From NCBI GenBank assembly GCA_045615385.1, contig JAZLES010000008.1:2601-66600 (forward strand): a stretch of 64,000 nt of DNA, read 5' to 3'. Source of the stretch: Candidatus Nanosyncoccus sp. GTDB taxonomy: Bacteria > Patescibacteriota > Saccharimonadia > Saccharimonadales > Saccharimonadaceae. How positions within the stretch are numbered: position 1 is the first letter of the stretch; each line of letters begins with the position of its first letter. Positions 33,530 to 49,510 of the stretch are shown in pieces. A program made the position numbers and the translations under genes. A model generated the notes under the pieces. That model was not told the origin of the DNA, made no database searches, and saw nothing but the letters and a program-made list of their open reading frames with translations.

Positions 33530-34483
33530 ATGTATATGAATCCAAAAATCTCAATTATCGTCCCCATTTATAATACCGCAAAATACCTCCCAACCTGTTT
33601 AGACTCAATTTTGAACCAAACCTACCAAAATCTCGAAATCATCCTTATAGACGATGGTTCTACTGACAATTCAAGTCAAATCATTGAAGAATATACTAAA
33701 AAAGATCGACGTATTAAATCCCTTCATCAAAAAAACGCCGGCCTCTCCTCTACTCGTAACACCGGGCTCAAAACCGCTACCGGAGATTACGTTACTTTTA
33801 TTGATTCTGACGACGAAATCGATATAAAAATGATTAAAAAAATGGTGGAAGCACTTTCGTCTTCAAAAGCAGATGTTGCAGTTTGCTCATTTAAAGAAAT
33901 CTATCCTAACGGCAAAGTCCTATATTTTAATCACGATTACCCTCAAAAAATCTATGATACCGAAGCAGCCCTCCGTGCCATGTTACTAGAAAGAGGTTTT
34001 ATGCTCTCATCTACTATGAAATTATTTCCTAAAAAATACTTCAAAGATATTCAATTCCCAATAGATAAACTTCACGAAGATGTTGATACTACTTATAAAC
34101 TAATCCTCAAAGCCGATAGAATTATCTTTTTACCAGACGCATATTATATATATCATCATCACGACGACTCAATTATCGAAAGTAAGTTCGACCGTCGCAA
34201 ACTTGATCTCATCTCTTTTACCGACAAAATGTGTGATGCTATTGATCAAAAATATCCAAGCCTTAAAAATGTTACTAATGAACGCCGCATGCGTGCTAGA
34301 TTTTCCATCTTACGTCAAATCCCTATTCACTATCCAGAAACCAAAGTTCTCTTAAATTACCTCAAAACACACCAAAATTTCATTACGAAAAACCCCGAAG
34401 CCAGCAAAACCGACAAAATCGCCCTTAAACTCGCCCTAACTAACCTCAAACTTTTTCAACTATCTTATAAATTATTTAAATAA
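33530..34483 (+). CDS. GT2 glycosyltransferase
   Basis: SIIVPIYN, IDDGSTD, FIDSDD, HEDV. Confidence 0.9.
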   Translation: MYMNPKISIIVPIYNTAKYLPTCLDSILNQTYQNLEIILIDDGSTDNSSQIIEEYTKKDRRIKSLHQKNAGLSSTRNTGLKTATGDYVTFIDSDDEIDIKMIKKMVEALSSSKADVAVCSFKEIYPNGKVLYFNHDYPQKIYDTEAALRAMLLERGFMLSSTMKLFPKKYFKDIQFPIDKLHEDVDTTYKLILKADRIIFLPDAYYIYHHHDDSIIESKFDRRKLDLISFTDKMCDAIDQKYPSLKNVTNERRMRARFSILRQIPIHYPETKVLLNYLKTHQNFITKNPEASKTDKIALKLALTNLKLFQLSYKLFK

Positions 34484-35463
34484 CTCATTGTATCGCGCAT
34501 TGCATCTTCTACGGTCAATTCCGTTTTCCAACCCAATTCTTTTTCTGCTTTAGACGGATCAGCATACATTTCTGCTAAATCCCCCGCTCTTCTTCCTACT
34601 ACCTTATAAGGCAATTTCTTCCCACTCGCTTTATTAAAAGCTTCAATCATCTCAAATACCGATGTCCCTTTTCCTGTGCCTAAATTATAAATCAAAATTC
34701 CTGGTTTCATCCTATCAATCGCTGCTACATGTCCCTTTGCCAAATCTACAACATGAATATAGTCCCGAATTCCACTTCCATCTGGCGTCGGATAATCGTC
34801 TCCATAAACACTTAGCTCTTTTATTTCTCCACGAGACACTTTCATAATAATCGGCATCAAATTATTTGGAATATCATTTGGATCTTCACCGATTAAACCA
34901 GACGGATGATTCCCAACTGGATTAAAATATCTCAAAATCACTGCCTGGAATTCCGAATCAGATTCTGCCACATCTTTCAACATTTCTTCAATGATATGTT
35001 TCGTCTCACCATAAGGGTTTGTAATTCCCATCCCTGTTGGCATTGATTCATCATACCTCGGCGTATCCTGTTCACCATATACCGTTGCAGAAGACGAAAA
35101 TACTATTTTCTTTACACCATTTTCTTCCATACTCTCAAGCAAGTTTACTGTTCCACCCACATTATTTTCATAATATTTTAGCGGATTCTCAACTGATTCC
35201 CCCACTGCCTTCAATCCTGCAAAGTGCATTACTAAATCATATTTTTTTCTCTTAAAAACATCATTTAACTCTTCTTTATCACGAAGATCAACCTGATAAA
35301 ACCCTGGTCGTTTCCCACATATTTGTTCTATTTTATCCAACACTGTAATTTTCGAATTATAAAGATTGTCCACAATATCAATTTCATAACCCTTATTTAA
35401 AAGTTCAATAATTGTATGTGAACCGATATATCCGGTCCCTCCAGTAACTAAAATCTTCTCCAT
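34465..35463 (-). CDS. galE: UDP-glucose 4-epimerase
   Basis: GGTGYIGSH, HFAGLKAVGES, YxxxK (YGETK), RDYIHV. Confidence 0.95.
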   Translation of the reverse strand: MEKILVTGGTGYIGSHTIIELLNKGYEIDIVDNLYNSKITVLDKIEQICGKRPGFYQVDLRDKEELNDVFKRKKYDLVMHFAGLKAVGESVENPLKYYENNVGGTVNLLESMEENGVKKIVFSSSATVYGEQDTPRYDESMPTGMGITNPYGETKHIIEEMLKDVAESDSEFQAVILRYFNPVGNHPSGLIGEDPNDIPNNLMPIIMKVSRGEIKELSVYGDDYPTPDGSGIRDYIHVVDLAKGHVAAIDRMKPGILIYNLGTGKGTSVFEMIEAFNKASGKKLPYKVVGRRAGDLAEMYADPSKAEKELGWKTELTVEDAMRDTMSYLNNL

Positions 35464-35519
35464 ATGACAATTATAACATTTTGTGATAAAATATACAGAA
35501 GTAATCTGGAATATATTTT

Positions 35520-37418
35520 ATGTTTTTTGTCGATTTTCTTGGCTGGATTATGAAATTGTGTTACCAAATGGTAAATGATTTTGGTTGGGCTATCGTTTTG
35601 TTTACTCTCGTCAGCAAAATCATCTTGTTGCCGATTTCAATCTGGGTACAAAAAAATTCTATTAAAATGGTCAAAATGCAACCTGAAATTAACCAATTAA
35701 AAGTCAAATATTTTGGTGACAAAGATGCAATTGCCGAAGAAGAATCAAAAATTTATAAGAAATATAAATATAACCCATTTGCTTCGCTCGTACCTTTAAT
35801 TATTCAAATTGTCCTACTTTTAGGCGTAGTTGAGATTGTTAAAAATCCAGAACTCTATATTGGCCTTGAAAATATTAATTATAATTTCTTTGGTTTTGAT
35901 CTTAGATGGATCGCAATTGAAAATGGTGGTATGGCAATTTGGATTCCAATTATCGCCGGCTTATCAGCTCTAGCATTATGTATTGGTCAAAACATTATGA
36001 ATGTACTCCAAGCTGAACAATCTAAATGGAATCAATGGGGGATGCTGATTCTTTCAGTTGGGCTTTCCTTATATCTTGGTACTTTCGTTACCGCTGGTGT
36101 GGCGCTTTACTGGACCGCCAGTAATTTAATGGCCATTATCCAGCAATGGCTCCTCAATATTTTCATTAATCCGAAAAAACACGTTGATTACAAAGCGCTT
36201 GAAAAATCGCGCGCCGAATTAAAGGAGTTACGAGATCTTAATAAAACGGTCAAAAGAACGAAAGAACAAATCAAAAAAGAAAAAGAAGACTATAAAAAGT
36301 TTTTCTCAGTTGCAAATAAAAAACTTGTATTTTACTCCGAAAGCAATGGTTTCTATAAATATTATAAAGGAATCATTGAATATATATTAGAAAATACAAA
36401 TTTAACAATTCATTATATTACAAGTGATTATCATGATAATATTTTCGAGCTCGCTAAAACTGAAAAACATATCAAACCGTATTACATTGAAGAAAAGAAA
36501 CTCATTACGTTAATGATGAAAATGGATGCAGATGTTGTTGTAATGACAATGCCAGACATCAATAATTATCATATTAAACGTAGTTATGTCCGAAAAGATA
36601 TTGAATACATTTATTTACCACATGGTATTGATAGCCCAAATCTTACGATGCGCAAAGGTTCAATGGACCATTATGATTCAGTTTTTGTGACTGGGAAATA
36701 TCAACGTGAAGAATGTGAAAAGACTAATCAAGTTTACAATATTAAAGAACGTAAAATTATCAATTTAGGTTATCCGCTTCTGGATGACATGATTTTTGAT
36801 TATAAAAAGTCCAAAAAGAAACCTAGCAAAACTAAAACTATCATGATTGCTCCATCTTGGCAAAAAGACAATATTATTGACTTGTGCTTAGATAATCTCC
36901 TCAAAGCTCTTAAAGGTGAAGATTACCAAGTTATTGTGCGCCCTCATCCTCAACAGGTTCGCCACATGAAAGATGCTTTTGAAAAAATGAAAGAAAAATA
37001 TGCAGGAACCAATATTATTATCCAAACTGATTTTTCATCCACTGATTCCGTCTTTAACTCCGATTTATTAATCACCGACTGGTCTAGTATTGGTTATGAA
37101 TACGCCTTTACCACTGAAAAACCAGTTATATCAATTGATACACCCATGAAGATAATGAACCCAGAATATAAGAAAATCAAAGTTGAACCAATCAATATTT
37201 GGGCTCGTGAAAAAATTGGCGAAGTGGTTAAAGTCAAAGACGTTAAGAATATTAATTCCGTTGTCAAGAAAATTCTAAAAGATCCTAAAAAATACCAAAA
37301 GAAAATTTCTACTCTTAAGAAAGATTCGATGTATAATTTAGGTAATAGCGCGGAGGTAGGCGCTGAATATATTATTAAATGTGTTCAAGAAAAAATTAAA
37401 GAAAGGAAAAAACAATGA
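35520..37418 (+). CDS. YidC/Oxa1 insertase domain fused to a CDP-glycerol glycerophosphotransferase (TagF-like) domain
   Basis: N-terminal about 215 aa: KMQPEINQLK...YKYNPF...ALYWTASN; C-terminal: YLPHG, LGYPLLD, IAPSW, RPHP, LITDWSSIGYEYAF. Confidence 0.8.
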   Translation: MFFVDFLGWIMKLCYQMVNDFGWAIVLFTLVSKIILLPISIWVQKNSIKMVKMQPEINQLKVKYFGDKDAIAEEESKIYKKYKYNPFASLVPLIIQIVLLLGVVEIVKNPELYIGLENINYNFFGFDLRWIAIENGGMAIWIPIIAGLSALALCIGQNIMNVLQAEQSKWNQWGMLILSVGLSLYLGTFVTAGVALYWTASNLMAIIQQWLLNIFINPKKHVDYKALEKSRAELKELRDLNKTVKRTKEQIKKEKEDYKKFFSVANKKLVFYSESNGFYKYYKGIIEYILENTNLTIHYITSDYHDNIFELAKTEKHIKPYYIEEKKLITLMMKMDADVVVMTMPDINNYHIKRSYVRKDIEYIYLPHGIDSPNLTMRKGSMDHYDSVFVTGKYQREECEKTNQVYNIKERKIINLGYPLLDDMIFDYKKSKKKPSKTKTIMIAPSWQKDNIIDLCLDNLLKALKGEDYQVIVRPHPQQVRHMKDAFEKMKEKYAGTNIIIQTDFSSTDSVFNSDLLITDWSSIGYEYAFTTEKPVISIDTPMKIMNPEYKKIKVEPINIWAREKIGEVVKVKDVKNINSVVKKILKDPKKYQKKISTLKKDSMYNLGNSAEVGAEYIIKCVQEKIKERKKQ

Positions 37419-37642
37419 ATGGAGCTATTATATTTGGCTATATCGACCCCTCGGTTATGACTTATGCCATCCAAGCTGGTGCCGGTATCGTTATTGCAAT
37501 CGGAGCCTTTGTCGGTTTATATTTCCGAAAAGCCAAGAAAAAAGTTAATAAAAAACTCGGCATCGACGAGAACAAAAATAAAGAAGTCGAATCGGACGAA
37601 ATTGAAGTCAAGAAAACCAAAAAGTCTGACAAAAGTAACTAG
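37415..37642 (+). CDS. Small single-TM protein (YIDP motif, charged tail)
   Basis: ATGA-coupled to the YidC fusion; GYIDPSVMTYAIQAGAGIVIAIG. Confidence 0.7.
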   Translation: MNGAIIFGYIDPSVMTYAIQAGAGIVIAIGAFVGLYFRKAKKKVNKKLGIDENKNKEVESDEIEVKKTKKSDKSN

Positions 37643-37668
37643 TCAAATTTCAAAAATAGGAACATGTT

Positions 37669-38727
37669 ATGTATTACTTAAATCCTAAACTTAAAGATTT
37701 AAACCGAATCTTCGACCAAAACGACAGAAGTAATTATTTGCGCCTAGACCTGAACGAAAATCCTGGAGGATTACCAAAAGATTTAATTGAAAAAGCCCTA
37801 AACGAAATTACACCAGAGTTGGTTGCTGAATATCCAGAAACTAGACATTTTCAAGAAATACTAGCCGATCATCTAGGCGCAAACCCCGAAAATATTTGCC
37901 TAGTTAACGGCTCCGCAGAAGGTATACGTTATATTATTGAAGCTTTCACTAGCGAAGGAGGGCGCATCGTCGGAGTTGTGCCATCCTATCTTATGTTCCA
38001 AATCTATTCAGAAATGTATGGTAGAAACTTTATCAAGGTCCCATACAATGATGACCTGACTATGAATATTGATCATATCATTTCTAAACTTACCGATGAT
38101 ACCCAACTCTTAATCCTATTAAACCCAAATAATCCCATGGGGAATACTTATAGCGAAGAAGAATTCCAAAAAATCCTCAGTGTCGCTAGGGCTAAACAAA
38201 TTACAGTTCTCGTTGATGAAGCTTATCATTATTTCTACCCAAAAACTTTTATTAAATATGCCCTAAACAACGAACATATTTTTATTACGCGAACTTTTTC
38301 TAAATTATTCTCTATGGCCGGATGTAGACTTGGCTATGTCGTCGGTTGGCCACAAGGTATCAAGATGGTGCAAAAACTATGTACGCCGCACAATACTAAC
38401 GTATTTGCTTTAAAAATTGCCGAAACAATCTTTAAGACACCAGGCGCTCTAGACAATTTAATCAATGATTTTAACGAAGGTAGAAGCTATTTTATTGAAT
38501 GGTTAAACAAACACCACTATCAACATCAAGGTAAAGCTGGTAACTTCATCTTTATAAAACCAAAAACCGATGCTAATACCGTCGTTGATCGTATGAAAAA
38601 AGAAAAGAAAATTCTTATCAAAAGCTACCCAAATGTAGGTAGTCTGGGCGACTGCCTGCGTGTATCTATCGGTAGTAAAAAATACATGAAAATCTTCACA
38701 AAAGCATTGTCAGAAATTGATAAATAG
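37669..38727 (+). CDS. PLP-dependent fold-type-I enzyme (HisC/CobD-like aminotransferase or decarboxylase)
   Basis: LDLNENP, NGSAEGI, NPNNPMG, DEAY, RTFSK(PLP)...GCRLG. Confidence 0.85.
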   Translation: MYYLNPKLKDLNRIFDQNDRSNYLRLDLNENPGGLPKDLIEKALNEITPELVAEYPETRHFQEILADHLGANPENICLVNGSAEGIRYIIEAFTSEGGRIVGVVPSYLMFQIYSEMYGRNFIKVPYNDDLTMNIDHIISKLTDDTQLLILLNPNNPMGNTYSEEEFQKILSVARAKQITVLVDEAYHYFYPKTFIKYALNNEHIFITRTFSKLFSMAGCRLGYVVGWPQGIKMVQKLCTPHNTNVFALKIAETIFKTPGALDNLINDFNEGRSYFIEWLNKHHYQHQGKAGNFIFIKPKTDANTVVDRMKKEKKILIKSYPNVGSLGDCLRVSIGSKKYMKIFTKALSEIDK

Positions 38728-38738
38728 GAGTTCGCTAT

Positions 38739-40067
38739 ATGAAAAAAGTTATAACCTACGGCTCGTTCGATTTATTCCATTACGGACACCAACGACTATT
38801 AGAACGCGCCAAAAAACTTGGCGATTATCTCATAGTCGGAGTTACTAGTGACGATTATGATCGTGTCCGCGGAAAAATCAACGTAGCCCAATCGTTAGGT
38901 GAACGCATAGCATCAGTAAAAGCCACCGGTCTTGCTGATATGATCATAATAGAAGAATACGACGGCCAAAAAATTGATGACATCAAAAAATATAACGTTG
39001 ATGTCTTTGCTATTGGCTCTGACTGGAAAGGCAAATTCGATTATTTAGGCAATTATTGTAAAGTAGTTTACCTTGACCGAACCAAAGGCATTTCGAGTTC
39101 AAAAATCCGTTCAGAAAAACGCGCTACTAAACTTGGTCTAGTAGGTGATTCTTGTGCATTTTTTGAAAAATTCCTAAAAGAAAGTAAATTTGTCAATGGT
39201 TTAGAAATCGTTAGTGTTTATCCAGAAAAACTCAAGTCTACAGATCAAGCAATACAAAAGCTCAATCTTAAAGTTTATGAATCTTATGACAACATGTTAA
39301 AAAATGTTGATGCTGTTTATATAAAAACTGATTATTCTAAACGTTTCGATTATATTAAAAACGCTCTCAAAAATGGCAAAAATGTACTTTGCGAATCGCC
39401 AATTTGTCTTGACGAAAACAAATGCCAAGAACTTTTTAAGCTCGCTAAGAAAAACAAATGTGTCTTAATGGAAGCCATACGTACAGCATATACGACCGCT
39501 TATAAACGCCTCGCTCTTTTGTCCGAAATAGGAAAAATCGGAAACGTATTATCAATTGAAGCCACTTGTACAAGTATGCGGAGAAATGACCCTGATCACT
39601 TCGCAAGCCTCTATGAATGGGGACCTAATGCTCTACTTCCTGTTTTCCAAATCCTTGGTACAAACTATCAGACCAAAACAATTATCACACATAAAAATCT
39701 AAAGTTAGCACAAGGTGATGCTTTCACCAAAATTAATTTTATCTATGAACATGCTACTGCCAGTATTACTGTAGCAGAAGGAGCTAAATCAGAAGGTGAC
39801 CTCGTTATATCTGGAGATAAAGCCTATATTTATGTCCCCGCTCCTTGGTGGAAAACTGAGTATTTTGAACTACGCTACGAAGACCCAGCTTATAATCGTC
39901 GATACTTTTACCAGTTAGACGGCGAAGGAATCCGTTATGAGCTAGTTGAATTCCTTCAATCTATGAAAGATGGTAAAGATGTTCCTCGCATAGATTACAA
40001 TACTACTCTTGCAATTTGCAAAGTTATGCAAGATTTTAAAGCACAAAAAGATTTAATCAAAATTTAG
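38739..40067 (+). CDS. TagD-like cytidylyltransferase fused to a Gfo/Idh/MocA oxidoreductase
   Basis: YGSFDLFHYGH...GSDW...RTKGISSS; then GLVG...KNVLCESP...MEAIRT. Confidence 0.85.
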   Translation: MKKVITYGSFDLFHYGHQRLLERAKKLGDYLIVGVTSDDYDRVRGKINVAQSLGERIASVKATGLADMIIIEEYDGQKIDDIKKYNVDVFAIGSDWKGKFDYLGNYCKVVYLDRTKGISSSKIRSEKRATKLGLVGDSCAFFEKFLKESKFVNGLEIVSVYPEKLKSTDQAIQKLNLKVYESYDNMLKNVDAVYIKTDYSKRFDYIKNALKNGKNVLCESPICLDENKCQELFKLAKKNKCVLMEAIRTAYTTAYKRLALLSEIGKIGNVLSIEATCTSMRRNDPDHFASLYEWGPNALLPVFQILGTNYQTKTIITHKNLKLAQGDAFTKINFIYEHATASITVAEGAKSEGDLVISGDKAYIYVPAPWWKTEYFELRYEDPAYNRRYFYQLDGEGIRYELVEFLQSMKDGKDVPRIDYNTTLAICKVMQDFKAQKDLIKI

Positions 40068-40106
40068 CCAAATAGAATCTCCCAATTTTGTGGTAAAATT
40101 ATAGAT

Positions 40107-40919
40107 ATGAATATACCCCGTATATTAAATAAAAAAAATCGCGTTCTTCTAGCTGAGCTGACTAAGACCGATTTCAAACTCAGATACCAAGGCTCGGTCC
40201 TCGGTTACCTATGGGCTTTACTACGCCCACTCATGATGTTTGCTATTTTGTATATTGTTTTTGCAAAACTTTTAAAATTCGGTGGAGATATTCCTCATTA
40301 CCCAGTATACCTCTTAGCCGGAACTACTATGTGGAGCTTCTTTACAGAATGTACTTCTCAAGGCATCCAAGCAATGGTTGTCCGTGGTGATCTTATTCGA
40401 AAAATCAGCTTTCCTAAATATATTGTTGTAGTTTCTGCTACTCTAACCGCCGTCATTAATATGCTCATTAATTTAGTCGTCGTTATTATTTTTGCTTTAA
40501 TTAACGGCGTGACAATTAGCTGGACCTGGTTACTCGTTCCGCTTTCCCTCGCTGAACTATATATTCTAGCCCTTGGTATCTCTTTCCTACTTGGAGCCAT
40601 TAATGTAAAGTATCGCGACGTCACTTCTATTTGGGACGTTTGTATTCAAGCTCTTTTCTATGCCGTTCCAATCATTTATCCAATTTCTATGGTTGTAGAA
40701 AGTAGCACCCTCGCCGCCAAAGTTATCCTCTTAAATCCAATTGCCCAAGCCATTCAAGATATTCGTCATAACCTTATCACGCCCGAAACTATTACTACTT
40801 GGAATTTTATCAATAACCACTTCTTCCAATTCTTACCAATTATTTTCATTATTGTCATTTTAATTTTTGCCGTTCTCTTTTTCCGTAAAAAATCTAAATA
40901 CTTTGCGGAGGAAATTTAA
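40107..40919 (+). CDS. wzm: ABC-2 polysaccharide exporter permease (Wzm/RgpC/TagG-like)
   Basis: FKLRYQGSVLGYLWALLRP, KYRD, FYAVPIIYP. Confidence 0.92.
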   Translation: MNIPRILNKKNRVLLAELTKTDFKLRYQGSVLGYLWALLRPLMMFAILYIVFAKLLKFGGDIPHYPVYLLAGTTMWSFFTECTSQGIQAMVVRGDLIRKISFPKYIVVVSATLTAVINMLINLVVVIIFALINGVTISWTWLLVPLSLAELYILALGISFLLGAINVKYRDVTSIWDVCIQALFYAVPIIYPISMVVESSTLAAKVILLNPIAQAIQDIRHNLITPETITTWNFINNHFFQFLPIIFIIVILIFAVLFFRKKSKYFAEEI

Positions 40920-42172
40920 TGAAAAAAAATCTTGGCACACGTACTGAAATAAATAATCCAAACGATAATACCGCTATAAAAGTAGAAAACCTTTCTAAGA
41001 GTTTTAAACTACCCATTAATCGCTCAAATAATCTAAAAAGCTCAATTTTTAATTTAATACGTGGCAATAAAGGTTATAAAAAACAGCAAGTTCTTAAAAA
41101 TATCGATTTAGAAATCAAACGTGGCGAATTTCTTGGTATTGTTGGTCGCAATGGTTCCGGAAAATCTACCCTTCTAAAAATTCTTGCCGGTATCTATTAT
41201 CCAGAAAAAGGCAAAATCACAATTAACGGTAATCTTATTCCCTTCATTGAGCTAGGCGTCGGCTTCAACCCAGATTTAACCGGTCGAGAAAACGTTTACT
41301 TAAATGGTGCATTGCTTGGCTTTTCTAATCACGAAATCGACAACATGTATGATGAAATTGTTAAGTTTGCTGAACTAGAAGAATTTATGGACCAAAAACT
41401 TAAAAACTTTTCCTCTGGCATGCAAGTCCGTCTCGCTTTTTCAATTGCTATTAAGGCCCAAGGAGATATCCTAGTACTCGACGAAGTTCTTGCCGTCGGT
41501 GACGAAGCTTTCCAAAACAAATGCAACCAATTCTTTAATAAAATAAAAAAAGATAAAACTAAAACTGTCGTTCTTGTCACGCATTCAATGGAAAACGTCC
41601 GTAAGTATTGTGATCATGCAATTCTCATACGTGATGGCATTATTACAATAGATGGTAGCCCAGAAGATGTGGCAAATAATTATAGTCTTGAAAACACCGA
41701 ACGTTATTCCAGTAATTTTAACAGACTCAATCAAAAAGAATCCGTTATTGAAAACCTCAAAGTCACTCTCGAATCGCCAGACATCATCAGCCAAAAGGAT
41801 AAAATTAAAATTAATATTGCATATGACACCAACGAAGATATCGCTACTCACGTTGCAATAACTTTATGGGATATCATTCGTAGCCAATCATTAATAAATA
41901 GTAATTCGAAAAAATACCCAACTATTGGTAAGAAACACCACACTATTTCTTTTGAAGCAAATCTCGACGAATTAAACGACACCAATATCCGAGCTTACGT
42001 TTCGATTCGCAATCAAGACGGTGATATTTTAGCCTATAGCCAAGAAAACGAATCACCCACTTTTATCTTCCGACGTTCAGATTACCCAGATTCTAAGAAT
42101 AAAACTACAAATGCTATATTATTTAATCGTGGAGAGTACGAAAACCATGAGAAAAAATCCAGTCAACAATAA
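40919..42172 (+). CDS. wzt: ABC polysaccharide exporter ATPase with a C-terminal Wzt-C-like domain
   Basis: GRNGSGKS, FSSGMQVRLAF, LDEVLAVGD. Confidence 0.92.
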   Translation: MKKNLGTRTEINNPNDNTAIKVENLSKSFKLPINRSNNLKSSIFNLIRGNKGYKKQQVLKNIDLEIKRGEFLGIVGRNGSGKSTLLKILAGIYYPEKGKITINGNLIPFIELGVGFNPDLTGRENVYLNGALLGFSNHEIDNMYDEIVKFAELEEFMDQKLKNFSSGMQVRLAFSIAIKAQGDILVLDEVLAVGDEAFQNKCNQFFNKIKKDKTKTVVLVTHSMENVRKYCDHAILIRDGIITIDGSPEDVANNYSLENTERYSSNFNRLNQKESVIENLKVTLESPDIISQKDKIKINIAYDTNEDIATHVAITLWDIIRSQSLINSNSKKYPTIGKKHHTISFEANLDELNDTNIRAYVSIRNQDGDILAYSQENESPTFIFRRSDYPDSKNKTTNAILFNRGEYENHEKKSSQQ

Positions 42173-43361
42173 TATTGCAGTTGTCTGTGATGATTTAACC
42201 GAATTTTTCGTCATCAAAAGTATTATTGATAGACTAAATAAATTAGATATTCCAGTTGACATCATCGTTCCTTCAGACAGTGGATATAATAATTTAGCTA
42301 ATCATACTATTACAAAAATCAAAGAATTAGGTTATTCTCCTTTAGATAATGCTCCTAAAGACAAATTATATAAAATACTCCTCACGCCATATCCGGGTTT
42401 AGATGTAGTAAAACGACTAAAATATATTTATCACATACGTTATCCCTATGGAGCCGTCTCTACCAAACCTAACCCCACTTATTTACCCAGTACTAGAATA
42501 GATTATGATGCTATCATATCTTTTAATACTTTTGATCAGACTTTTCTTAATGCCTACGGAGCTACAGTCTACCCTGTACCATATTGGCGTTATCATAATT
42601 TTAAAAAAGATGCCAAGACTCATTCAAAACCGGTCCTCCTTATCCTTCCTACTTTTGGAGCAGATACCAGCTGCGCCAATAAGTTTACTGATTCAGCTAT
42701 CGATGAAATCAAAAAACATTTTTTTGTCATAGTTAAAGCTCACCATGCTATTCATTTCGGTTATGACGGAGATCAAACCATCAATAATCTCAAAAAAATA
42801 GCAGACGAGTATTATGATTCAGACATCCCGATTGATCAATTATTAAAAAAAGCCGATCTAGTCCTGTCCGACAATTCAGGAGCAATTTTCGAAGCAATTT
42901 GTGCCGACACTCCTGTTGCTTTATTCGCCGACAATCTCAATGCCAGAAAATTCCACACAATCGACACTCCTCAATATATTTATGCTCATCAAGGCATCTT
43001 ACCCCACACCAACCAAGCTGAACAGGTTCTACCAATGCTTCTATCGATTCAACCTTTTTATAAAAAACAGCAAACTCTTAAAAAACAATTGTTTTTACAG
43101 ATATCAAACAATCCATATAAAAATTTTATTAAAATTATCAAATACTATCTAACCTTAGACGAAACCAAAGATTTTCATAAAGTCTTACATGATGCCATGG
43201 TTAAAGAATGGTATCATGATAAACAAACAATTTTAGATCAAAAAACTAAAATTGAAGAACTAACTGCCACTATCAATAATCTCTATAATTCAAATAGTTG
43301 GAAGATTACAAAACCCTTAAGGACTATCAAAATACGGAGTAAAAATCATGTTAAAAAATAA
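42147..43361 (+). CDS. CDP-glycerol glycerophosphotransferase-like (GT-B) protein with a coiled-coil tail
   Basis: LILPTF, VKAHH, ADLVLSDNSGAIFEA; ends NSNSWKITKPLR. Confidence 0.7.
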   Translation: MRKNPVNNNIAVVCDDLTEFFVIKSIIDRLNKLDIPVDIIVPSDSGYNNLANHTITKIKELGYSPLDNAPKDKLYKILLTPYPGLDVVKRLKYIYHIRYPYGAVSTKPNPTYLPSTRIDYDAIISFNTFDQTFLNAYGATVYPVPYWRYHNFKKDAKTHSKPVLLILPTFGADTSCANKFTDSAIDEIKKHFFVIVKAHHAIHFGYDGDQTINNLKKIADEYYDSDIPIDQLLKKADLVLSDNSGAIFEAICADTPVALFADNLNARKFHTIDTPQYIYAHQGILPHTNQAEQVLPMLLSIQPFYKKQQTLKKQLFLQISNNPYKNFIKIIKYYLTLDETKDFHKVLHDAMVKEWYHDKQTILDQKTKIEELTATINNLYNSNSWKITKPLRTIKIRSKNHVKK

Positions 43362-44637
43362 ACGTATTCTTATTACACAACCAATTATTCGGGGTTTTAA
43401 TGGCTCTACTCTCTTAACACTAGAGCTAGCCGACGCTCTTCAAAAAATCGGAGCCAAAGTTACTCTATATACCTGCAACTATACAAAACCAGCTTCCACT
43501 TTTTTTCAAAAAGCCAATCTCCACGTCGATACACTTCAAGATAATCCAGATTACAAATTATCAGATTTTGACTATATCTGGATTCATTCACAAATCTTAC
43601 CGACTAGCATTATTAAGGATTTATCCTATAAACATTCTAAAATACCTTCATTTATCTTTTTGCATATGTCTGGTATGGATTGGATCCCCGATGAAAAACC
43701 TTGGATTTATAATTTAGAAAATCAACTCTCTGGCTTATCACTCTTTATTTCTGAAGAAGTATTAGAAGTTAATAAACCATTTCTTGATTCTTCAATCCCT
43801 ACTGCATTCTTCCGTAATCCAGCTCCAAAAGAATATCTCCAAATCGGATCAACCCCTTCTCCGAACCTACAAAAACTTCTCATCGTTTCCAATCATCCAC
43901 CCAAAGAAGTTTTAGAAGCCAAAAAAATACTTATCGAAAAATACCATCTCAACGTTTCTATTCTTGGCGAAAGCCAAGACAAATATACCCTCATGAGCCC
44001 ATCAATCCTCAACCAATATGATGCCGTACTCACAATTGCTAAAACCGTCCCTTATTGTTTACTCGCTAACAAACCGGTATATATATATGATGCCTTTGGT
44101 GGCGGTCCAGGTTGGCTTAATAAAAATAATTATAACCAAGCCAAATATCGTAATTTTTCTGGCTATCAAAACCACCTTTTCCCTAATTATGAAGGCAAAT
44201 GTTTTTCCTTTAAAAAACCTGAACAAATTTCACAAGAAATTATCAATGGTTATAAAGACGCTTTGCTTTTTCAAACATCACAACACGAAGAATTTATCCA
44301 AGATTTTTCTCTAGAACAAGTTATTCCTAACATTTTTCAATCCGTCCAACAAAGAAATATTACACCCTTTCCTAAATCATATACCGAATCTGTTATCGCT
44401 TCTCAATTGTTTGCATTTAATCGTTTTGAAGCAGTTAGCCTCTTATATGAACGCGATGCAAATATTAACCATTTACTCAAAGAGGTCAACAAACTCCGCA
44501 TATCCAATACAACTCTTTCTCATTATAAAAAATCTGCCGAAGCCGTCTTCTCATCTCGAGCATATCGTTTATTTAACCAATTTATTAAACCATATCAAAA
44601 AATAAAGTATCGGCAAGATAGAGGTAAAAAACCATGA
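43348..44637 (+). CDS. Putative GT-B glycosyltransferase
   Basis: GFNGSTLLTLELA N-terminus, LLIVSNH, YDAFGGGPGW; coiled-coil tail. Confidence 0.6.
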   Translation: MLKNKRILITQPIIRGFNGSTLLTLELADALQKIGAKVTLYTCNYTKPASTFFQKANLHVDTLQDNPDYKLSDFDYIWIHSQILPTSIIKDLSYKHSKIPSFIFLHMSGMDWIPDEKPWIYNLENQLSGLSLFISEEVLEVNKPFLDSSIPTAFFRNPAPKEYLQIGSTPSPNLQKLLIVSNHPPKEVLEAKKILIEKYHLNVSILGESQDKYTLMSPSILNQYDAVLTIAKTVPYCLLANKPVYIYDAFGGGPGWLNKNNYNQAKYRNFSGYQNHLFPNYEGKCFSFKKPEQISQEIINGYKDALLFQTSQHEEFIQDFSLEQVIPNIFQSVQQRNITPFPKSYTESVIASQLFAFNRFEAVSLLYERDANINHLLKEVNKLRISNTTLSHYKKSAEAVFSSRAYRLFNQFIKPYQKIKYRQDRGKKP

Positions 44638-45083
44638 CAAAAGAATCTAATAACAAAAAACCAATTATCGGCTACACTGCCGGCGTTTATGATATGTTTC
44701 ATATTGGGCATCTTAATGTCATTCGCAACGCAAAAGCCCAATGTGATTATTTAATCGTAGCAGTTAGCACTGATGAATTAGTAAAAAAAGAAAAAAACAA
44801 AACCCCAGTCATCCCATTTGAAGAGCGCAAAGAAATTGTCGCCGCCATAAAGTATGTAGATGAAGTTGTGCCCCAAACCGACAAAAACAAATTAGGTGCT
44901 TGGCAAAAATATAAATTCGATAAAATGTTCGTCGGTTCAGATTGGCAAAATACCCCTCAATGGAAAAAATACGAAGAAGAACTAAACCCTCATGGTGTAG
45001 AAATTGTCTACCTTCCACATACTGATGGTATATCTAGCACCGAATTAGCATCATTAATCAAAAAGCTTTTACCTCATGAATAA
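44634..45083 (+). CDS. tagD: Glycerol-3-phosphate cytidylyltransferase-like
   Basis: GVYDMFHIGHLN, GSDW, HTDGISST. Confidence 0.85.
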   Translation: MTKESNNKKPIIGYTAGVYDMFHIGHLNVIRNAKAQCDYLIVAVSTDELVKKEKNKTPVIPFEERKEIVAAIKYVDEVVPQTDKNKLGAWQKYKFDKMFVGSDWQNTPQWKKYEEELNPHGVEIVYLPHTDGISSTELASLIKKLLPHE

Positions 45084-46110
45084 GAATGAAAAATATCGCA
45101 TCAAATATGTTGATATTCTAAGGGCAATCGCAATCATTTTAGTCGTTGCTGGACATATACCCTATGTCAACTTCAACGCAGATCTCCACAAATGGATTTA
45201 TGCTTTTCACATCCCACTATTCTTTTTTATTTCCGGTATCTCACTTTCTTTTATCGATTATTCAAAAATAAGTTTTAAACAACTTTTTTTAAAACGATTT
45301 CATAGGATTTATTTACCATTTTTAATATGGGGGATTCTTCTAGCAATTCCTAGCTTTAGTCTATGGACAGTCCCAAAAATTCTTTATGGTACTCACCAAT
45401 CACTAGCCTCCGTCACGAATAGCTCTTTGTGGTTTTTACCCGTACTTTTTGTCAGTATAATCACAGCTGATTTTGTTTTAATTATATTAGCCAAGAAAAA
45501 GTCTCTTTCGAAACTTCCCCTTATCTTAATTATTTTCTTACTTTTAGCATTAATTGTACCATCACAACCAACAATTCAGAATATCCTAGGCGGACATAAT
45601 CTACCATTTGGCATTGATATCGCTCCAATGACAATAGTGTTTCTACTACTTGGCTATCTGTATCAAACCCATCAAAAAACTCCCAAAAAACCACTCAAAA
45701 TATATATTTCAATTCCAATTATCATTATTTCATTCTTGCTAACTCTTTATTTTGGCTTAAATAACAATATCAGCTATGTCCTCATGGCAGAAAACCGTTA
45801 TGGCAATTATTTGTTCTTTTTCATTGCAGCCTTTGCTGGAATAATTGCCAGCATTTTAATATCATTCATTATCGAAAAATATACCAAACATCTAGCAAAT
45901 CTCATGCAAAAAATCGGTTCAGATACTTTACTAACATTTATTCTACATAAATATCCGCTTCAATGGTCCATCAATCTTCTCGCTCTTATTACAACATCTT
46001 ATATTTCGAACTGGTTCATCGTTCCGTATTGTCTACTATTCACAATGCCAACCTGCATGCTGTTCTCATATTTAATCAAAAAGTATGCGCCCATTCTCGC
46101 CGGAAAATAA
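45076..46110 (+). CDS. Acyltransferase-3 family O-acyltransferase
   Basis: DILRAIAIILVVAGH, FHIPLFFFISG, LWFL; about 10 TMs. Confidence 0.9.
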   Translation: MNKNEKYRIKYVDILRAIAIILVVAGHIPYVNFNADLHKWIYAFHIPLFFFISGISLSFIDYSKISFKQLFLKRFHRIYLPFLIWGILLAIPSFSLWTVPKILYGTHQSLASVTNSSLWFLPVLFVSIITADFVLIILAKKKSLSKLPLILIIFLLLALIVPSQPTIQNILGGHNLPFGIDIAPMTIVFLLLGYLYQTHQKTPKKPLKIYISIPIIIISFLLTLYFGLNNNISYVLMAENRYGNYLFFFIAAFAGIIASILISFIIEKYTKHLANLMQKIGSDTLLTFILHKYPLQWSINLLALITTSYISNWFIVPYCLLFTMPTCMLFSYLIKKYAPILAGK

Positions 46111-46124
46111 ACTTTAATTTATTT

Positions 46125-47267
46125 CTAAATCAATTCTTCAACTAGGTCTAAAGCATTCTTAATTGCTTTGTCCATATCCCAATATTGATATGCTCCAAGT
46201 CGTCCACCTAAGGTTAAATTTGGGTATTTCTTTTTCGCTAGTTCCACATATTCTTCATACAATTTTGCCGACTCTTCATTATTCACCGGATAATAAGCTT
46301 CTCCGCCTTTCTCAAAATCCGCCGGATACTCTCGCGCGACATAAGATATCTTTTGTCTAATTATTTCTAGCTGATGCACTTGATAATATTTATAATCATG
46401 TGCTCTCGTATATGGTACATCCTTATCGGCCTCATTTATCACCGCTTCACCAAGACCACTTTCTGTTCTTTCTTCTTCAAATTTTAACGATCTCCAAGGC
46501 AACACACCTAATTCGTAATCACAAAGTTCATCAATTTGCCCACAATAAATTATTTTTACATTTTTAAGCAATTTTTTTTCAATATTCCTAAAATCCGTAT
46601 TCAATTTTACTTCAATATTTTTTGAATCAAGCATCCTTTCGACTATCTTTGTGTAGCCATCTTTTGGAATACCTTGATATTTTGCCGTCATAAAATAGCG
46701 ATTATCATGTGAAAATCTCACTGGTATCCGACTTAGTATTTCTGCTGACAAATTTTTCGCAGAAGTATTCCACTGTTTTTCCGTATAATTTTTCAAAAAT
46801 GCCGTATAGAGTTTTTCTCCTACCAAACTAATTCCTTTTTCCTCAAAATTCTTTGGCCTAGTAATGCCATACTTCTCACTGTCCCGTTTTGCTTCCTTCG
46901 CCACATACTTCTCTGCCTCCTCCGCATCCATATCCATCCCATATAACAAATTAATCGTGTCAAGATTAATTGGCATCGGATACAATTTCCCATCATGCCG
47001 CGTATCTACCGTGTGTATATAATCATTAAACTCCGTGAATTTCGTAATATAACCCCAAACTTCATCCATTTCCGTATGAAAAATATGTGAGCCATATTTA
47101 TGTACTTCAATTCCCGTCTCTTCATCAGTATAAGAATAAATGTTTCCAGCTAGATGCGGTCGCCTTTCAATCACCAACACTTTTTTACCTAAGCTCGCCA
47201 ACCTTTCCGCTACCGTTGCACCAAAAATCCCCGCCCCCACTACCAAATAGTCATATTTAGTTTCCAT
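46125..47267 (-). CDS. glf: UDP-galactopyranose mutase
   Basis: GAGIFG, HKYGSHIFHT, YYPVN, GRLGAYQYWDMD. Confidence 0.95.
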   Translation of the reverse strand: METKYDYLVVGAGIFGATVAERLASLGKKVLVIERRPHLAGNIYSYTDEETGIEVHKYGSHIFHTEMDEVWGYITKFTEFNDYIHTVDTRHDGKLYPMPINLDTINLLYGMDMDAEEAEKYVAKEAKRDSEKYGITRPKNFEEKGISLVGEKLYTAFLKNYTEKQWNTSAKNLSAEILSRIPVRFSHDNRYFMTAKYQGIPKDGYTKIVERMLDSKNIEVKLNTDFRNIEKKLLKNVKIIYCGQIDELCDYELGVLPWRSLKFEEERTESGLGEAVINEADKDVPYTRAHDYKYYQVHQLEIIRQKISYVAREYPADFEKGGEAYYPVNNEESAKLYEEYVELAKKKYPNLTLGGRLGAYQYWDMDKAIKNALDLVEELI

Positions 47268-47268
47268 G

Positions 47269-48366
47269 CTATTTCTCCTTTTTTAAACCATCCAACCTAT
47301 CCGACAAATCAACAAATTTCTCGTAAGCATCATCTAAGAATACATTAATATAGTTTTGTTGCCGATAACCATAATTAACCTTCAAATAAAAATTCTTCAA
47401 CAATAACTTAGTCCTTTTCTTAATCTTATAGAACAAATTATAGTATGCAATTTCCCGTACTGAATTTTCTACTTTTCGGTTCAACGGTTTATACTTATCG
47501 TAATACTGATTGATAAAATCTTTTCCTAGCACCATAATCTTCTTATGATACTTTCTCGCTGAATGATTATACGAAAACCAAAAACTCTCCACAAATTGCG
47601 CCCAGGCCAAATCCTTATGCCTCTCCAAAAAACCATTTTCCTTGTAAAACTTAAACAATTTCTCCGCAATTAGTAAATGATCCGGAGAATACAAATCTTT
47701 ATCAAAAAACTCCGACATAATTGAACCTTCATGACGAATATACTTATATAATTTACGGTTCAAATAATAACAAGTTTTTGCCACACTCATATATGCATTG
47801 TAAAAATAATAATCTTCGTTGTTTAATTTTTCAGGAAAATCAATCTTAAATTTTTGGATTAAATCCATCCTAAAAATCTTATTACATACCGAAGCATCCG
47901 TTTTTCTAATTATATTTTCATCAATATAATTTTTCCCATAAAACTTCAGCCTGTAATATGCCTCATCACTATTTTTAATTTCCGAATGCGCCTCATATTC
48001 TGTCGTAATTCCACACACGGCAAGATCTGTCTCATATTCTTCCAGTGCCTTCACCATCTTCTCGCACATCGTTAAATCATATTTATCATCCGAATCACAA
48101 AACATCACATAAGGAGAAGAGACCTTTTTTAATCCCTTATTCCTAGCTATAGAGCGTCCGCCATTTTGCTGATTCACTACTATAATACGACTATCTTTCT
48201 TTCTATATTCTTCCAAAATTTCCAGTGAACCATCCGTCGAACCGTCATTTACACAAATTATCTCAATATCTTTCAACGTCTGTTTGAGTAAACTATCCAG
48301 ACATATACCAACGTATTTCTCAACATTGTAAACTGGCACAATCACACTTACTTTACTTTTTTTCAT
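47269..48366 (-). CDS. GT2 glycosyltransferase
   Basis: SVIVPVYN, VNDGSTD, FCDSDD, NEDY. Confidence 0.9.
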   Translation of the reverse strand: MKKSKVSVIVPVYNVEKYVGICLDSLLKQTLKDIEIICVNDGSTDGSLEILEEYRKKDSRIIVVNQQNGGRSIARNKGLKKVSSPYVMFCDSDDKYDLTMCEKMVKALEEYETDLAVCGITTEYEAHSEIKNSDEAYYRLKFYGKNYIDENIIRKTDASVCNKIFRMDLIQKFKIDFPEKLNNEDYYFYNAYMSVAKTCYYLNRKLYKYIRHEGSIMSEFFDKDLYSPDHLLIAEKLFKFYKENGFLERHKDLAWAQFVESFWFSYNHSARKYHKKIMVLGKDFINQYYDKYKPLNRKVENSVREIAYYNLFYKIKKRTKLLLKNFYLKVNYGYRQQNYINVFLDDAYEKFVDLSDRLDGLKKEK

Positions 48367-49510
48367 TTTCTTCCTCTAATTTAGCTTCAATTTCCGAAAT
48401 TTTCACCGACAACTCACCTTGAACTTCGTTTAGCTTTTCAATTGTCTTTATTGTTTCTAACCTCTGCTTATACCTAGGAGAGATTACCCTTAACGCTTTC
48501 GAGGCTGCCGGTTTGACAGAATTTCTCAAATCATGTAATGGCCTCAAAAAAACATACATTTTAGGATGACGAATCGCAATTAACTTACTATTATATTTGC
48601 CTACCTCATCTAACTTCTTAACGTCCAAATACCCGCCAGCCTTTGCCCGCCCATAATCGCTCTTCACAACTTTCGTAAAAGCCATTGCAGGCTTAAACTT
48701 CAACCTATGCATATTCCAAATATAACCACCAAATCTACATGTGAAAACTAACGGTCCCAACTCTTCCATCAATCCGCGCTCACCCAAATATCTTTCAATT
48801 TCATCGTATTCTTCCTTTACACAATAAATCTTTCCTGCATCCTTCACAGAAGAATTGGAATTATCTTGGCGATAATGTAGAAATGCTCTCTGTACAAAAA
48901 ACACTCTCCTCGCCATCGCCCAAATCTTGAAATTAAAACCGGTATCTTGATACGATGCTCCTGGAGTCGGCAAAAACCTTATCTCATTCGAGTTCAAAAA
49001 CTCACGCCTATAAATCGCTGCCCAAATACAAGGTGGCTGATAAAAAATCTGATGCTCCTCCCTCGGATCAATCACCCTACCAATTTCACTCACTGGGAAC
49101 AAATTACTTACTCCTCTGTCAGTTTTTGTATCACCAAAGTATTCATAAAAATTGCTTTTCACTACTTCCACATTTTCAGTTTTTGCTATTTTGTAGAGCT
49201 TCTCGAATGCATCCAAATCAATAAAATCATCCGATTCAACAATCCCAACATACTCACCCGTAGCTTTTTCAAGCCCCCGATTCATCGAATCTCCATAACC
49301 AGAATTCTTTTTATTAATAATCACGATACGTTTATCTTTATCCGCATACCTTTTTATGATATTCAGCGAATCATCCTTAGAACCGTCATTAATACATATT
49401 ATTTCAATCTCCTTCAGAGTCTGATTCACCAGACTATCTAAACATTCCGGCAAAAATTCTTCCACATTATATATCGGCACCAACACCGACACTTTCACTC
49501 TACTACTCAT
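48353..49510 (-). CDS. GT2 glycosyltransferase
   Basis: SVLVPIYN, INDGSKD, IVESDD, YQDTGF. Confidence 0.9.
   Translation of the reverse strand: MSSRVKVSVLVPIYNVEEFLPECLDSLVNQTLKEIEIICINDGSKDDSLNIIKRYADKDKRIVIINKKNSGYGDSMNRGLEKATGEYVGIVESDDFIDLDAFEKLYKIAKTENVEVVKSNFYEYFGDTKTDRGVSNLFPVSEIGRVIDPREEHQIFYQPPCIWAAIYRREFLNSNEIRFLPTPGASYQDTGFNFKIWAMARRVFFVQRAFLHYRQDNSNSSVKDAGKIYCVKEEYDEIERYLGERGLMEELGPLVFTCRFGGYIWNMHRLKFKPAMAFTKVVKSDYGRAKAGGYLDVKKLDEVGKYNSKLIAIRHPKMYVFLRPLHDLRNSVKPAASKALRVISPRYKQRLETIKTIEKLNEVQGELSVKISEIEAKLEEENEKK

Follow-up and report, generated by a model that had tools for sequence, protein, structure and literature searches.

A conserved gene pair of surface-glycan loci, encoding a HisC-fold aminotransferase paralogue and a TagD-like fusion protein, with a predicted role in making a CDP-activated amino-alcohol

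Within a 64,000-nucleotide stretch of a Candidatus Nanosyncoccus genome (part of contig C8, JAZLES010000008.1; this whole stretch is called the window in the following), two neighboring genes on the plus strand encode a HisC-fold pyridoxal phosphate (PLP) enzyme of 352 amino acids (aa) (P0001, 37669 to 38727) and a fusion protein of 442 aa (P0002, 38739 to 40067), in which a TagD-like cytidylyltransferase is joined to a domain of the Gfo/Idh/MocA fold. The genome comprises 754,982 bp in 22 contigs with a completeness estimate of 100%, and the closest matches of the window proteins are named Candidatus Saccharibacteria. Both open reading frames (ORFs) lie exactly where a first-pass annotation of this DNA had placed them, in one operon with the polymer export genes wzm and wzt. 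That annotation had read them as a route to an amino-alcohol or amino-alditol activated by cytidine diphosphate (CDP), made by oxidoreduction and by transamination or decarboxylation. Its observation is confirmed and its interpretation is supported in part, since an amine is likely to be made but a redox step is doubtful. The PLP enzyme appears to be a specialized paralogue that recurs together with the fusion protein in distant bacteria, the Gfo/Idh/MocA half of the fusion has lost its catalytic residues, and an amino-alcohol phosphate in CDP-activated form is, in our view, the probable product.

A HisC paralogue in a host without histidine and cobamide pathways

P0001 matches Pfam Aminotran_1_2 (4e-41), and its best NCBIfam match is hisC (TIGR01141) with 233.4 bits, which is below the cut-off of 276.55. 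On the CobD model TIGR01140 it reaches 147 bits against a cut-off of 290.55, so that the HisC score exceeds the CobD score by 86 bits, and among solved structures HisC enzymes come closest (1e-28 to 1e-30). These likenesses would fit the explanation that P0001 is the histidinol-phosphate aminotransferase of the host, or its CobD, and has come to lie in a glycan operon by chance. However, the host is without the pathways in which such enzymes act: hisD (TIGR00069) was not detected in the complete 755-kb genome and was found in 14 of 14 control genomes, and CobS was likewise not detected in the host, with control genomes positive. P0001 is the only HisC-like match of this genome. The earlier statement that no other his or cob genes are present is thus true of the whole genome for hisD and CobS, the two markers tested, and the outcome that would have been fatal to the earlier interpretation, a HisC with the remaining pathway elsewhere, is not what the sub-cut-off score and the missing hisD indicate. 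Among eight other carrier genomes, in which the P0001 homologues score 224 to 230 bits on TIGR01141, six encode a separate canonical HisC (279 to 350 bits).

An alignment with E. coli HisC (1fg3) shows that P0001 retains Tyr55, Tyr110, Asn157, Asp184, Tyr187, Lys214, Arg222 and Arg335, and we take Tyr55, Asn157, Asp184, Tyr187, Lys214 and Arg222 to be the residues of PLP binding. Arg322 and Arg335 of HisC presumably form the phosphate site, and P0001 is basic at both positions, with Lys318 aligned to Arg322 and an arginine at the second. Asp85 of HisC, which we assume to contact the imidazole ring, corresponds to Ala83, an alanine shared by 90% or more of the members of the main P0001 family. 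The family is very uniform, with 65 to 82% identity and a length of 352 aa across phyla. Because of the scores below both cut-offs, the absence of hisD and CobS, and the separate canonical HisC in most carriers, P0001 is, as judged from its sequence, a distinct paralogue and neither the housekeeping HisC nor CobD.

The housekeeping identity was rejected on the same grounds, to which the Asp85 to Ala exchange and the joint conservation with the fusion across phyla can be added, and we regard it as effectively refuted.

Conservation of the pair and the case for an amine

With P0001 as query, 80 loci were fetched, which span Saccharibacteria, Clostridia, Lachnospiraceae, Ruminococcus albus, Eggerthia catenaformis, Bacteroides intestinalis, Prevotellaceae, Muribaculaceae, Actinomycetaceae, Elusimicrobiaceae and Desulfovibrionaceae; Bacteroidales, Erysipelotrichales and Elusimicrobia are also among the groups, and at least six phyla are represented. 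A full-length homologue of the cytidylyltransferase-Gfo fusion is present in 69 of the 80 loci, lying within 150 nt of the PLP gene in 50 and downstream of it in 59, which bears out the earlier assumption that the two proteins are functionally tied. Of the 80 loci, 42 have transferases of the LicD family and 18 have TagF-like ones, 56 having at least one of the two kinds, and a GNAT gene stands directly upstream of the aminotransferase in 12. The PLP gene and the fusion form a mobile unit, which is widespread and by no means confined to the present operon. No fusion is found in the 36 genomes of the same genus and the 24 of the same order that were examined, and therefore the cassette is, in this epibiotic saccharibacterium, an accessory, species-variable surface trait that was probably horizontally acquired. 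A search of 400 genomes of the class Bacilli for an unfused arrangement returned only three distant PLP relatives (39 to 43% identity) with generic cluster names, two of them beside a fusion and one beside a LicC-like cytidylyltransferase. Homologues are found in thousands in gut and rumen metagenomes, again with generic database names, and cultured carriers belong to Bacteroides, Ruminococcus, Eggerthia, Oribacterium and Xylanibacter, among them E. catenaformis DSM 20559, R. albus AR67, B. intestinalis AF14-32 and O. asaccharolyticum ACB7.

Two other associations of the PLP gene were seen among these loci. In a metagenome-assembled genome of the Lachnospiraceae (L013, 1483 to 4690), a homologue with 70% identity lies directly upstream of flaG and fliD with no cytidylyltransferase nearby, and the P0001 family may have a second role, for example in flagellin modification. 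A frequent arrangement in Bacteroidales, seen in L006 (5669 to 8001) and some 20 further loci, has genes for a polysaccharide pyruvyl transferase and an FrhB/FdhB-like 4Fe-4S protein close upstream of the PLP gene; this pair is probably an independent decoration module.

The neighbors of the fusion bear on the reaction of the PLP enzyme. Five fusion homologues (59 to 61% identity) were sampled in their own contigs, in eight loci (L090 to L097), and all five lie directly downstream of a class V aminotransferase of 357 to 360 aa that is unrelated to HisC. The nearest models of this partner are aminoethylphosphonate (AEP) transaminase (PhnW/AepZ) and BhcA, with 154 to 168 bits, all below the cut-offs. 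In L090 to L092 the order of a YidC-TagF fusion gene (59% identical to that at 35520 to 37418 of the window), a small ORF (73% identical) and the aminotransferase is the order of the window with a non-homologous aminotransferase. This non-orthologous displacement speaks for the transamination of a small phospho-carbonyl as the conserved role, and not for a decarboxylation. The first-pass annotation had left both reactions open; the former is now favored and the latter is less likely.

A decarboxylase was nevertheless considered, since P0001 does match CobD, and Cj1436 of Campylobacter jejuni is a HisC-fold phosphoserine decarboxylase according to PMC11800397. In such a route, phosphoserine or phosphothreonine would be converted to ethanolamine phosphate or aminopropanol phosphate, which would be CDP-activated for a decoration of the phosphoethanolamine type. 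The cytidylyltransferase superfamily includes ethanolamine-phosphate cytidylyltransferases, and the second cytidylyltransferase of the operon (44634 to 45083) finds its best match among them. Yet P0001 is closer to HisC than to CobD by the margin given above, the enzyme that replaces it in synteny is a class V aminotransferase from a transaminase clade, and the cobamide pathway is absent. Also a SerC-like gene was not evident in the host genome, where three class V matches look like cysteine desulfurases, so that a supply of phosphoserine for this route is not evident. We therefore think that a decarboxylase is improbable.

That the product carries an amine is indicated by recurring neighbors. 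In L093 to L097 a GNAT gene is found directly upstream of the class V aminotransferase, and an opine (octopine/nopaline) dehydrogenase adjoins the PLP gene on the minus strand in L087 (10382 to 11515) and in L088 (1836 to 2951), where the PLP enzymes are 39 to 41% identical to P0001. Both enzyme types act on primary amines, and their recurrence thus points to an amine-bearing product; the opine dehydrogenase loci suggest head groups of the N-(1-carboxyalkyl) amino-alcohol phosphate type. No GNAT is present in the window, so that the free amine would be kept on its product. The neighbors of the PLP relative in L088 are LicD, a TagF-like gene and the gene of a LicC-like cytidylyltransferase, and in L055 another relative is accompanied by a stand-alone cytidylyltransferase resembling the second one of the window. 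Neither locus has a Gfo domain, and therefore the amine can apparently be made without a dedicated oxidoreductase. From the earlier proposal, a CDP-activated amino product for a transferase is hence retained in the form of an amine-bearing phospho-alcohol, but an amino-alditol derived from a sugar phosphate has found no support.

A TagD-like domain fused to a Gfo/Idh/MocA domain without catalytic residues

Pfam places CTP_transf_like at aa 5 to 125 and GFO_IDH_MocA at aa 152 to 245 of P0002. The cytidylyltransferase domain occupies aa 1 to 128 (38739 to 39122, plus strand), and residues 1 to 126 align full-length with the TagD structures 1coz of B. subtilis and 2b7l of S. aureus (1e-33 to 1e-34). 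Across 44 aligned homologues the nucleotide-binding motifs His14-x-Gly16-His17 and Arg114-Thr115-x-Gly117-x-Ser119-Ser120 do not vary. On the TagD equivalog model TIGR01518, however, the domain scores 113.5 bits, below the cut-off of 165.4, and it differs from TagD by the fusion itself, by an aminotransferase that is always its partner, and by substitutions in the lid and pocket. Asp41 (Asn41 in TagD), Arg44-Gly45-Lys46 and Glu72 are invariant in the family and Glu73 is nearly so. The lid reads Arg44-Gly45-Lys46-x-Asn48, and the TagD stretch PEK(N/G)W has become (I/V)EEY(D/E)G. Relative to TagD, acidic residues are thus gained at three places (Asn41 to Asp, Lys to Glu73, Trp to Asp/Glu75), and such a gain near the predicted alcohol-phosphate site would suit a cationic substrate.

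The second cytidylyltransferase, which the first-pass annotation had already recorded at 44634, is indeed present there as a stand-alone protein of 149 aa (44634 to 45083, plus strand; CTP_transf_like 6.1e-21) with 96.1 bits on TIGR01518, below the cut-off of 165.4. Its best match in the Protein Data Bank (PDB) is the human ethanolamine-phosphate cytidylyltransferase 3elb, with 99 bits summed over two domains; per domain the likeness is about equal, with 66.8 bits for the first domain of 3elb and 73.5 for TagD. Relatives of this protein adjoin the PLP gene in L055, L010 and L012, and in L002 it travels with relatives of two other proteins of the operon, a divergent TagF-like protein and P0291. 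Its predicted substrate may be glycerol phosphate or an amino-alcohol phosphate.

The second half of P0002 (aa 129 to 442; 39123 to 40067, plus strand) was assigned by Pfam and by AlphaFold and Foldseek. The Pfam match to GFO_IDH_MocA is clear (65.5 bits, cut-off 24), and it starts at profile position 23 and so omits the first 22 positions with the glycine-rich loop. The AlphaFold model, with a mean predicted local distance difference test (pLDDT) score of 88.8, has the two-domain architecture of a Rossmann and an alpha/beta fold, and Foldseek gives target-normalized template modeling (TM) scores of about 0.81 to 0.85 with dimeric dihydrodiol dehydrogenase, KijD10, GnnA, 3evn, 3e9m and 4had, the entries 2o48 and 3rc1 also being in this range. 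The fold is kept, but the catalytic residues are not. Of 192 aligned homologues, 162 have Ser, 16 Ala, 8 Thr and 6 Asn at position 220, the place of the EKP lysine; Lys occurs in none of them, and P0002 itself reads ESP. Compared with 4had, 3e9m and 3evn, the catalytic Asp falls into a gap and the Tyr is replaced by the near-invariant Phe303. The dinucleotide loop, Gly133-x-x-Gly136-(Asp/Glu/Asn)-(Ser/Tyr/gap), varies in length and has lost its later glycines, including the third, so that a GxGxxG/A motif is not found. These losses leave the oxidoreduction step of the first-pass annotation unsupported. A C-terminal stretch, SEGxLxISG...YVPAPWWKTxYFE...RYFYQLDGEGIRYE, is almost invariant (PAPWWKTEYFE...RYFYQLDGEGIRYE in P0002), and therefore the domain is under selection for another role. 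Most likely it is a conserved non-redox domain that serves as a scaffold, in product handover or in ligand binding.

The main rival to this view is an amination at the nucleotide level, in which the TagD-like domain would form CDP-glycerol, an active Gfo domain would oxidize the C2 hydroxyl to give CDP-dihydroxyacetone, and the PLP enzyme would convert this to CDP-serinol. A fusion of the cytidylyltransferase with the Gfo domain does suggest that they act one after the other, the former domain strongly resembles TagD, and with a GpsA-like protein in the host, glycerol 3-phosphate would be available. The trio of GNAT, aminotransferase and Gfo domain parallels WbpB/WbpE/WbpD, and the structural neighbors KijD10 and GnnA (TM about 0.83), which act on nucleotide-linked substrates, share the fold of the domain as well as a neighboring aminotransferase and often a GNAT. 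Nevertheless, all P0002 homologues examined differ from WbpB/GnnA and KijD10 in lacking the catalytic lysine of EKP, the GxGxxG loop and the loop with Asp and Tyr(His), and in L088 and L055 the cytidylyltransferase beside the PLP relative is devoid of a Gfo domain. Moreover, aminotransferases of the HisC-like and PhnW/SerC-like types are known for small phospho- or phosphono-carbonyls, and we know of no nucleotide-linked substrates for them. An amination at the nucleotide level therefore seems unlikely to us.

A second rival derives from the pneumococcal capsule, since a dehydrogenase-like protein and a nucleotidyl transferase beside a TagF-like (WchX-like) transferase also occur in serotypes 23F and 15. 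The cassette could accordingly be a fused form of the gtp1/gtp2/gtp3 pathway, which makes CDP-2-glycerol for glycerol-2-phosphate side groups. Compared by annotation, Gtp1/Gtp2/Gtp3 and WchX indeed share with the cassette a donor pathway of three activities that ends in a cytidylyltransferase, the adjacent TagF-like transferase and the location in a capsule locus. According to PMC3493582, however, the gtp set is annotated as a dehydrogenase, a nucleotidyl transferase and a phosphotransferase (Gtp3), with no PLP enzyme. Here the constant partner is an aminotransferase, amine-modifying neighbors recur, and the dehydrogenase-like domain has lost its catalytic residues. Profile scans found no kinase-like gene in the window operon. 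We consider a gtp-type pathway very improbable.

A proposed pathway in the context of its operon

The substrate of HisC is imidazole-acetol phosphate, and the central metabolite closest to it is dihydroxyacetone phosphate (DHAP). The host encodes a triose-phosphate isomerase as well as the mentioned GpsA-like protein. In C. jejuni, the HisC-fold Cj1437 reportedly converts DHAP to (S)-serinol phosphate (PMC11800397). From the HisC-like chemistry, this precedent and the triose-phosphate isomerase, we infer that P0001 most likely forms serinol phosphate from DHAP. P0001 would thus transaminate a central phospho-ketone, most likely DHAP, with glutamate as donor, to yield serinol phosphate (2-amino-2-deoxyglycerol phosphate), and the TagD-like domain of P0002 would combine this with CTP to form CDP-serinol. 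A TagF-like enzyme would then move the phospho-amino-alcohol onto or into a galactofuranose-containing polymer at the cytoplasmic face, the first candidate being the YidC-fused TagF because its synteny with the aminotransferase is kept, and Wzm and Wzt would finally carry the polymer out. In this polymer the phospho-amino-alcohol may be a repeating unit of the backbone, a side group or a terminal cap. For the complete scheme, with DHAP transamination as the first step, CDP-serinol as the product and no redox role of the Gfo domain, we see the chances as roughly even. Its furthest extension, in which TagF-like enzymes would use CDP-serinol to add serinol phosphate within or at the end of a galactofuranose chain and so give an intrinsically zwitterionic, teichoic-acid-like polymer that needs no D-alanylation, with the Gfo half as a pseudo-dehydrogenase for scaffolding or handover, is tentative and in our estimate somewhat unlikely. 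The literature searched contained no mention of CDP-serinol or of this gene combination.

Several points weigh against the scheme. The TagD likeness is strong, with about half of the positions identical by eye and 120 to 123 bits, so that glycerol 3-phosphate is possibly still the substrate, and the second cytidylyltransferase could be the amine-activating one. The strong conservation of the C-terminal stretch means that the Gfo half may be catalytic by way of unconventional residues, and the ancient, tight fusion together with the GNAT/aminotransferase/Gfo trio mirrors the amination of nucleotide sugars by WbpB/WbpE/WbpD. About 8 of the 80 PLP homologues are orphans that lie away from glycan genes, near MatE, GH127 or PrmC genes. 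The roles assigned above to residues of HisC and TagD are presumed from the structural literature. Finally, the annotations, family models and papers searched gave no measured product for any member of the cassette.

The comparison with known systems places the cassette among small head groups that are transferred from CDP. Cj1437 resembles P0001 in fold and in its location in a surface-polysaccharide locus, it acts on a small three-carbon phosphate, and its reaction is the one proposed for P0001. In C. jejuni, however, an ATP-dependent ligase couples serinol phosphate to glucuronate through an amide bond, and the phosphate is removed afterwards (PMC11800397), whereas the constant partner here, a cytidylyltransferase accompanied by LicD or TagF-like enzymes, implies a head group linked by a phosphodiester. 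With TagD/TarD and TagF/TagB the cassette shares the full-length alignment, the HxGH and RTxGxSS motifs, TagF-like transferases and an exporter of the TagGH/Wzm-Wzt type. The phosphocholine pathway with LicC and LicD and the route with AEP transaminase and PntC follow the same logic, in which a small cationic phospho- or phosphono-alcohol is activated with CTP and attached by LicD-family enzymes. This likeness shows in the LicD genes of 42 loci and in the alternative aminotransferase, which is nearest to AEP transaminases. In contrast to these systems, the sampled loci have no choline kinase or transporter, no phosphoenolpyruvate mutase and no phosphonopyruvate decarboxylase, and the cytidylyltransferase is of the TagD class and not of the LicC/PntC class, with the exception of the LicC-like one in L088. 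The cassette is a variant of the scheme in which a CDP-activated head group is attached by a LicD or TagF transferase.

In the window, eleven co-directional ORFs extend from 35520 to 46110 at distances of -4 to 39 nt, and from this tight spacing it follows that they are a single operon. The G+C content is 0.33 to 0.36 over about 34 to 54 kb (with one 2-kb bin of 0.364 near 49 kb), compared with 0.37 to 0.45 in the first 34 kb. A promoter-like site (ATGACA-17-TAAAAT with a TG; 35464 to 35492, plus strand; 10 of 12 consensus positions) lies just 5' of the first gene; as such sites are no commoner in the region than in shuffled sequences, the evidence for it is weak.

The first gene (35520 to 37418, plus strand) had been noted as TagF-like, and a Glyphos_transf domain is present (PF04464, 62.6 bits against a cut-off of 22.1; 4.1e-17), which places it in the TagF/TagB family. 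It is not a plain TagF, though, but a fusion of a YidC-insertase-like domain (aa 21 to 213; 60KD_IMP 5.5e-32) with a TagF-like CDP-alcohol phosphotransferase domain (aa 264 to 600). A second, separate YidC-like match was seen on the minus strand near 57.0 to 57.2 kb. The stop codon of the YidC-TagF gene overlaps (ATGA) the start of an ORF for a 75-aa protein (37415 to 37642, plus strand). This protein has a hydrophobic stretch, which probably crosses the membrane once, and its tail is rich in Lys; no Pfam family match was obtained for it. Both genes recur in another metagenomic lineage (L090, 9481 to 11828), with the identities given above and a small protein of 91 aa, and in L090 to L092 (7329 to 9465) two genes separate the fusion from the YidC-TagF gene, one of them signal-peptidase-like (S26) and the other of the Sulfatase family. 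The latter family takes in LtaS and phosphoethanolamine transferases.

Downstream of the fusion, wzm (40107 to 40919, plus strand) encodes an ABC-2 permease for polymer export (ABC2_membrane 7.9e-17; 82 bits on a galactan export permease model, below the cut-off). It is followed by an ABC ATPase of the Wzt/TagH type with 417 aa (40919 to 42172, plus strand; ABC_tran 1.4e-23; 163 to 184 bits on the TagH and Wzt models, below their cut-offs), of which about 150 C-terminal residues belong to no Pfam family. In other Wzt proteins, a C-terminal extension of this kind is the part that binds the polymer for export, at its terminal cap. P0290 (42111 to 43361, plus strand) is a divergent second TagF-like CDP-alcohol phosphotransferase. 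The protein itself gave no Pfam, NCBIfam or PDB sequence match and was identified via its homologues only, which are 28 to 57% identical and carry PF04464, one of them being annotated as CDP-glycerol glycerophosphotransferase. Likewise, the 429-aa protein P0291 (43348 to 44637, plus strand) had no match in Pfam, NCBIfam and PDB sequence searches; by eye its N-terminus resembles a GT-B glycosyltransferase, and it is 79% conserved in the saccharibacterial locus L002. The operon ends, after the second cytidylyltransferase, with a membrane acyltransferase (45076 to 46110, plus strand; Acyl_transf_3, 9.1e-31). With two cytidylyltransferases and two TagF-like transferases in one operon, two CDP-alcohol donors may be in use.

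The operon is flanked by a GT2 glycosyltransferase gene (33530 to 34483, plus strand; profile match) and galE for a UDP-glucose 4-epimerase (34465 to 35463, minus strand; TIGR01179, 412 bits, above the cut-off) on one side, and on the other by genes for the UDP-galactopyranose mutase Glf and two GT2 glycosyltransferases (46125 to 49510, minus strand; GLF 8.2e-65, Glycos_transf_2 3e-41 and 2e-36). The presence of Glf and GalE together with the GT2 genes suggests that the chain contains galactofuranose. The glycan locus has at its far end an ORF of 662 aa (49519 to 51507, minus strand) with no significant Pfam match.

The catalytically stripped Gfo/Idh/MocA domain, if this reading is true, is a clean case of a conserved pseudoenzyme that is fused to an active partner. 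Small charged head groups such as phosphocholine, phosphoethanolamine, D-alanine and aminoethylphosphonate govern the recognition of bacterial surfaces by immunity, phages and antimicrobial peptides. If the cassette yields a phospho-amino-alcohol, for example phosphoserinol, this would represent a new CDP-activated donor and a new zwitterionic motif on the glycans of the microbiota.

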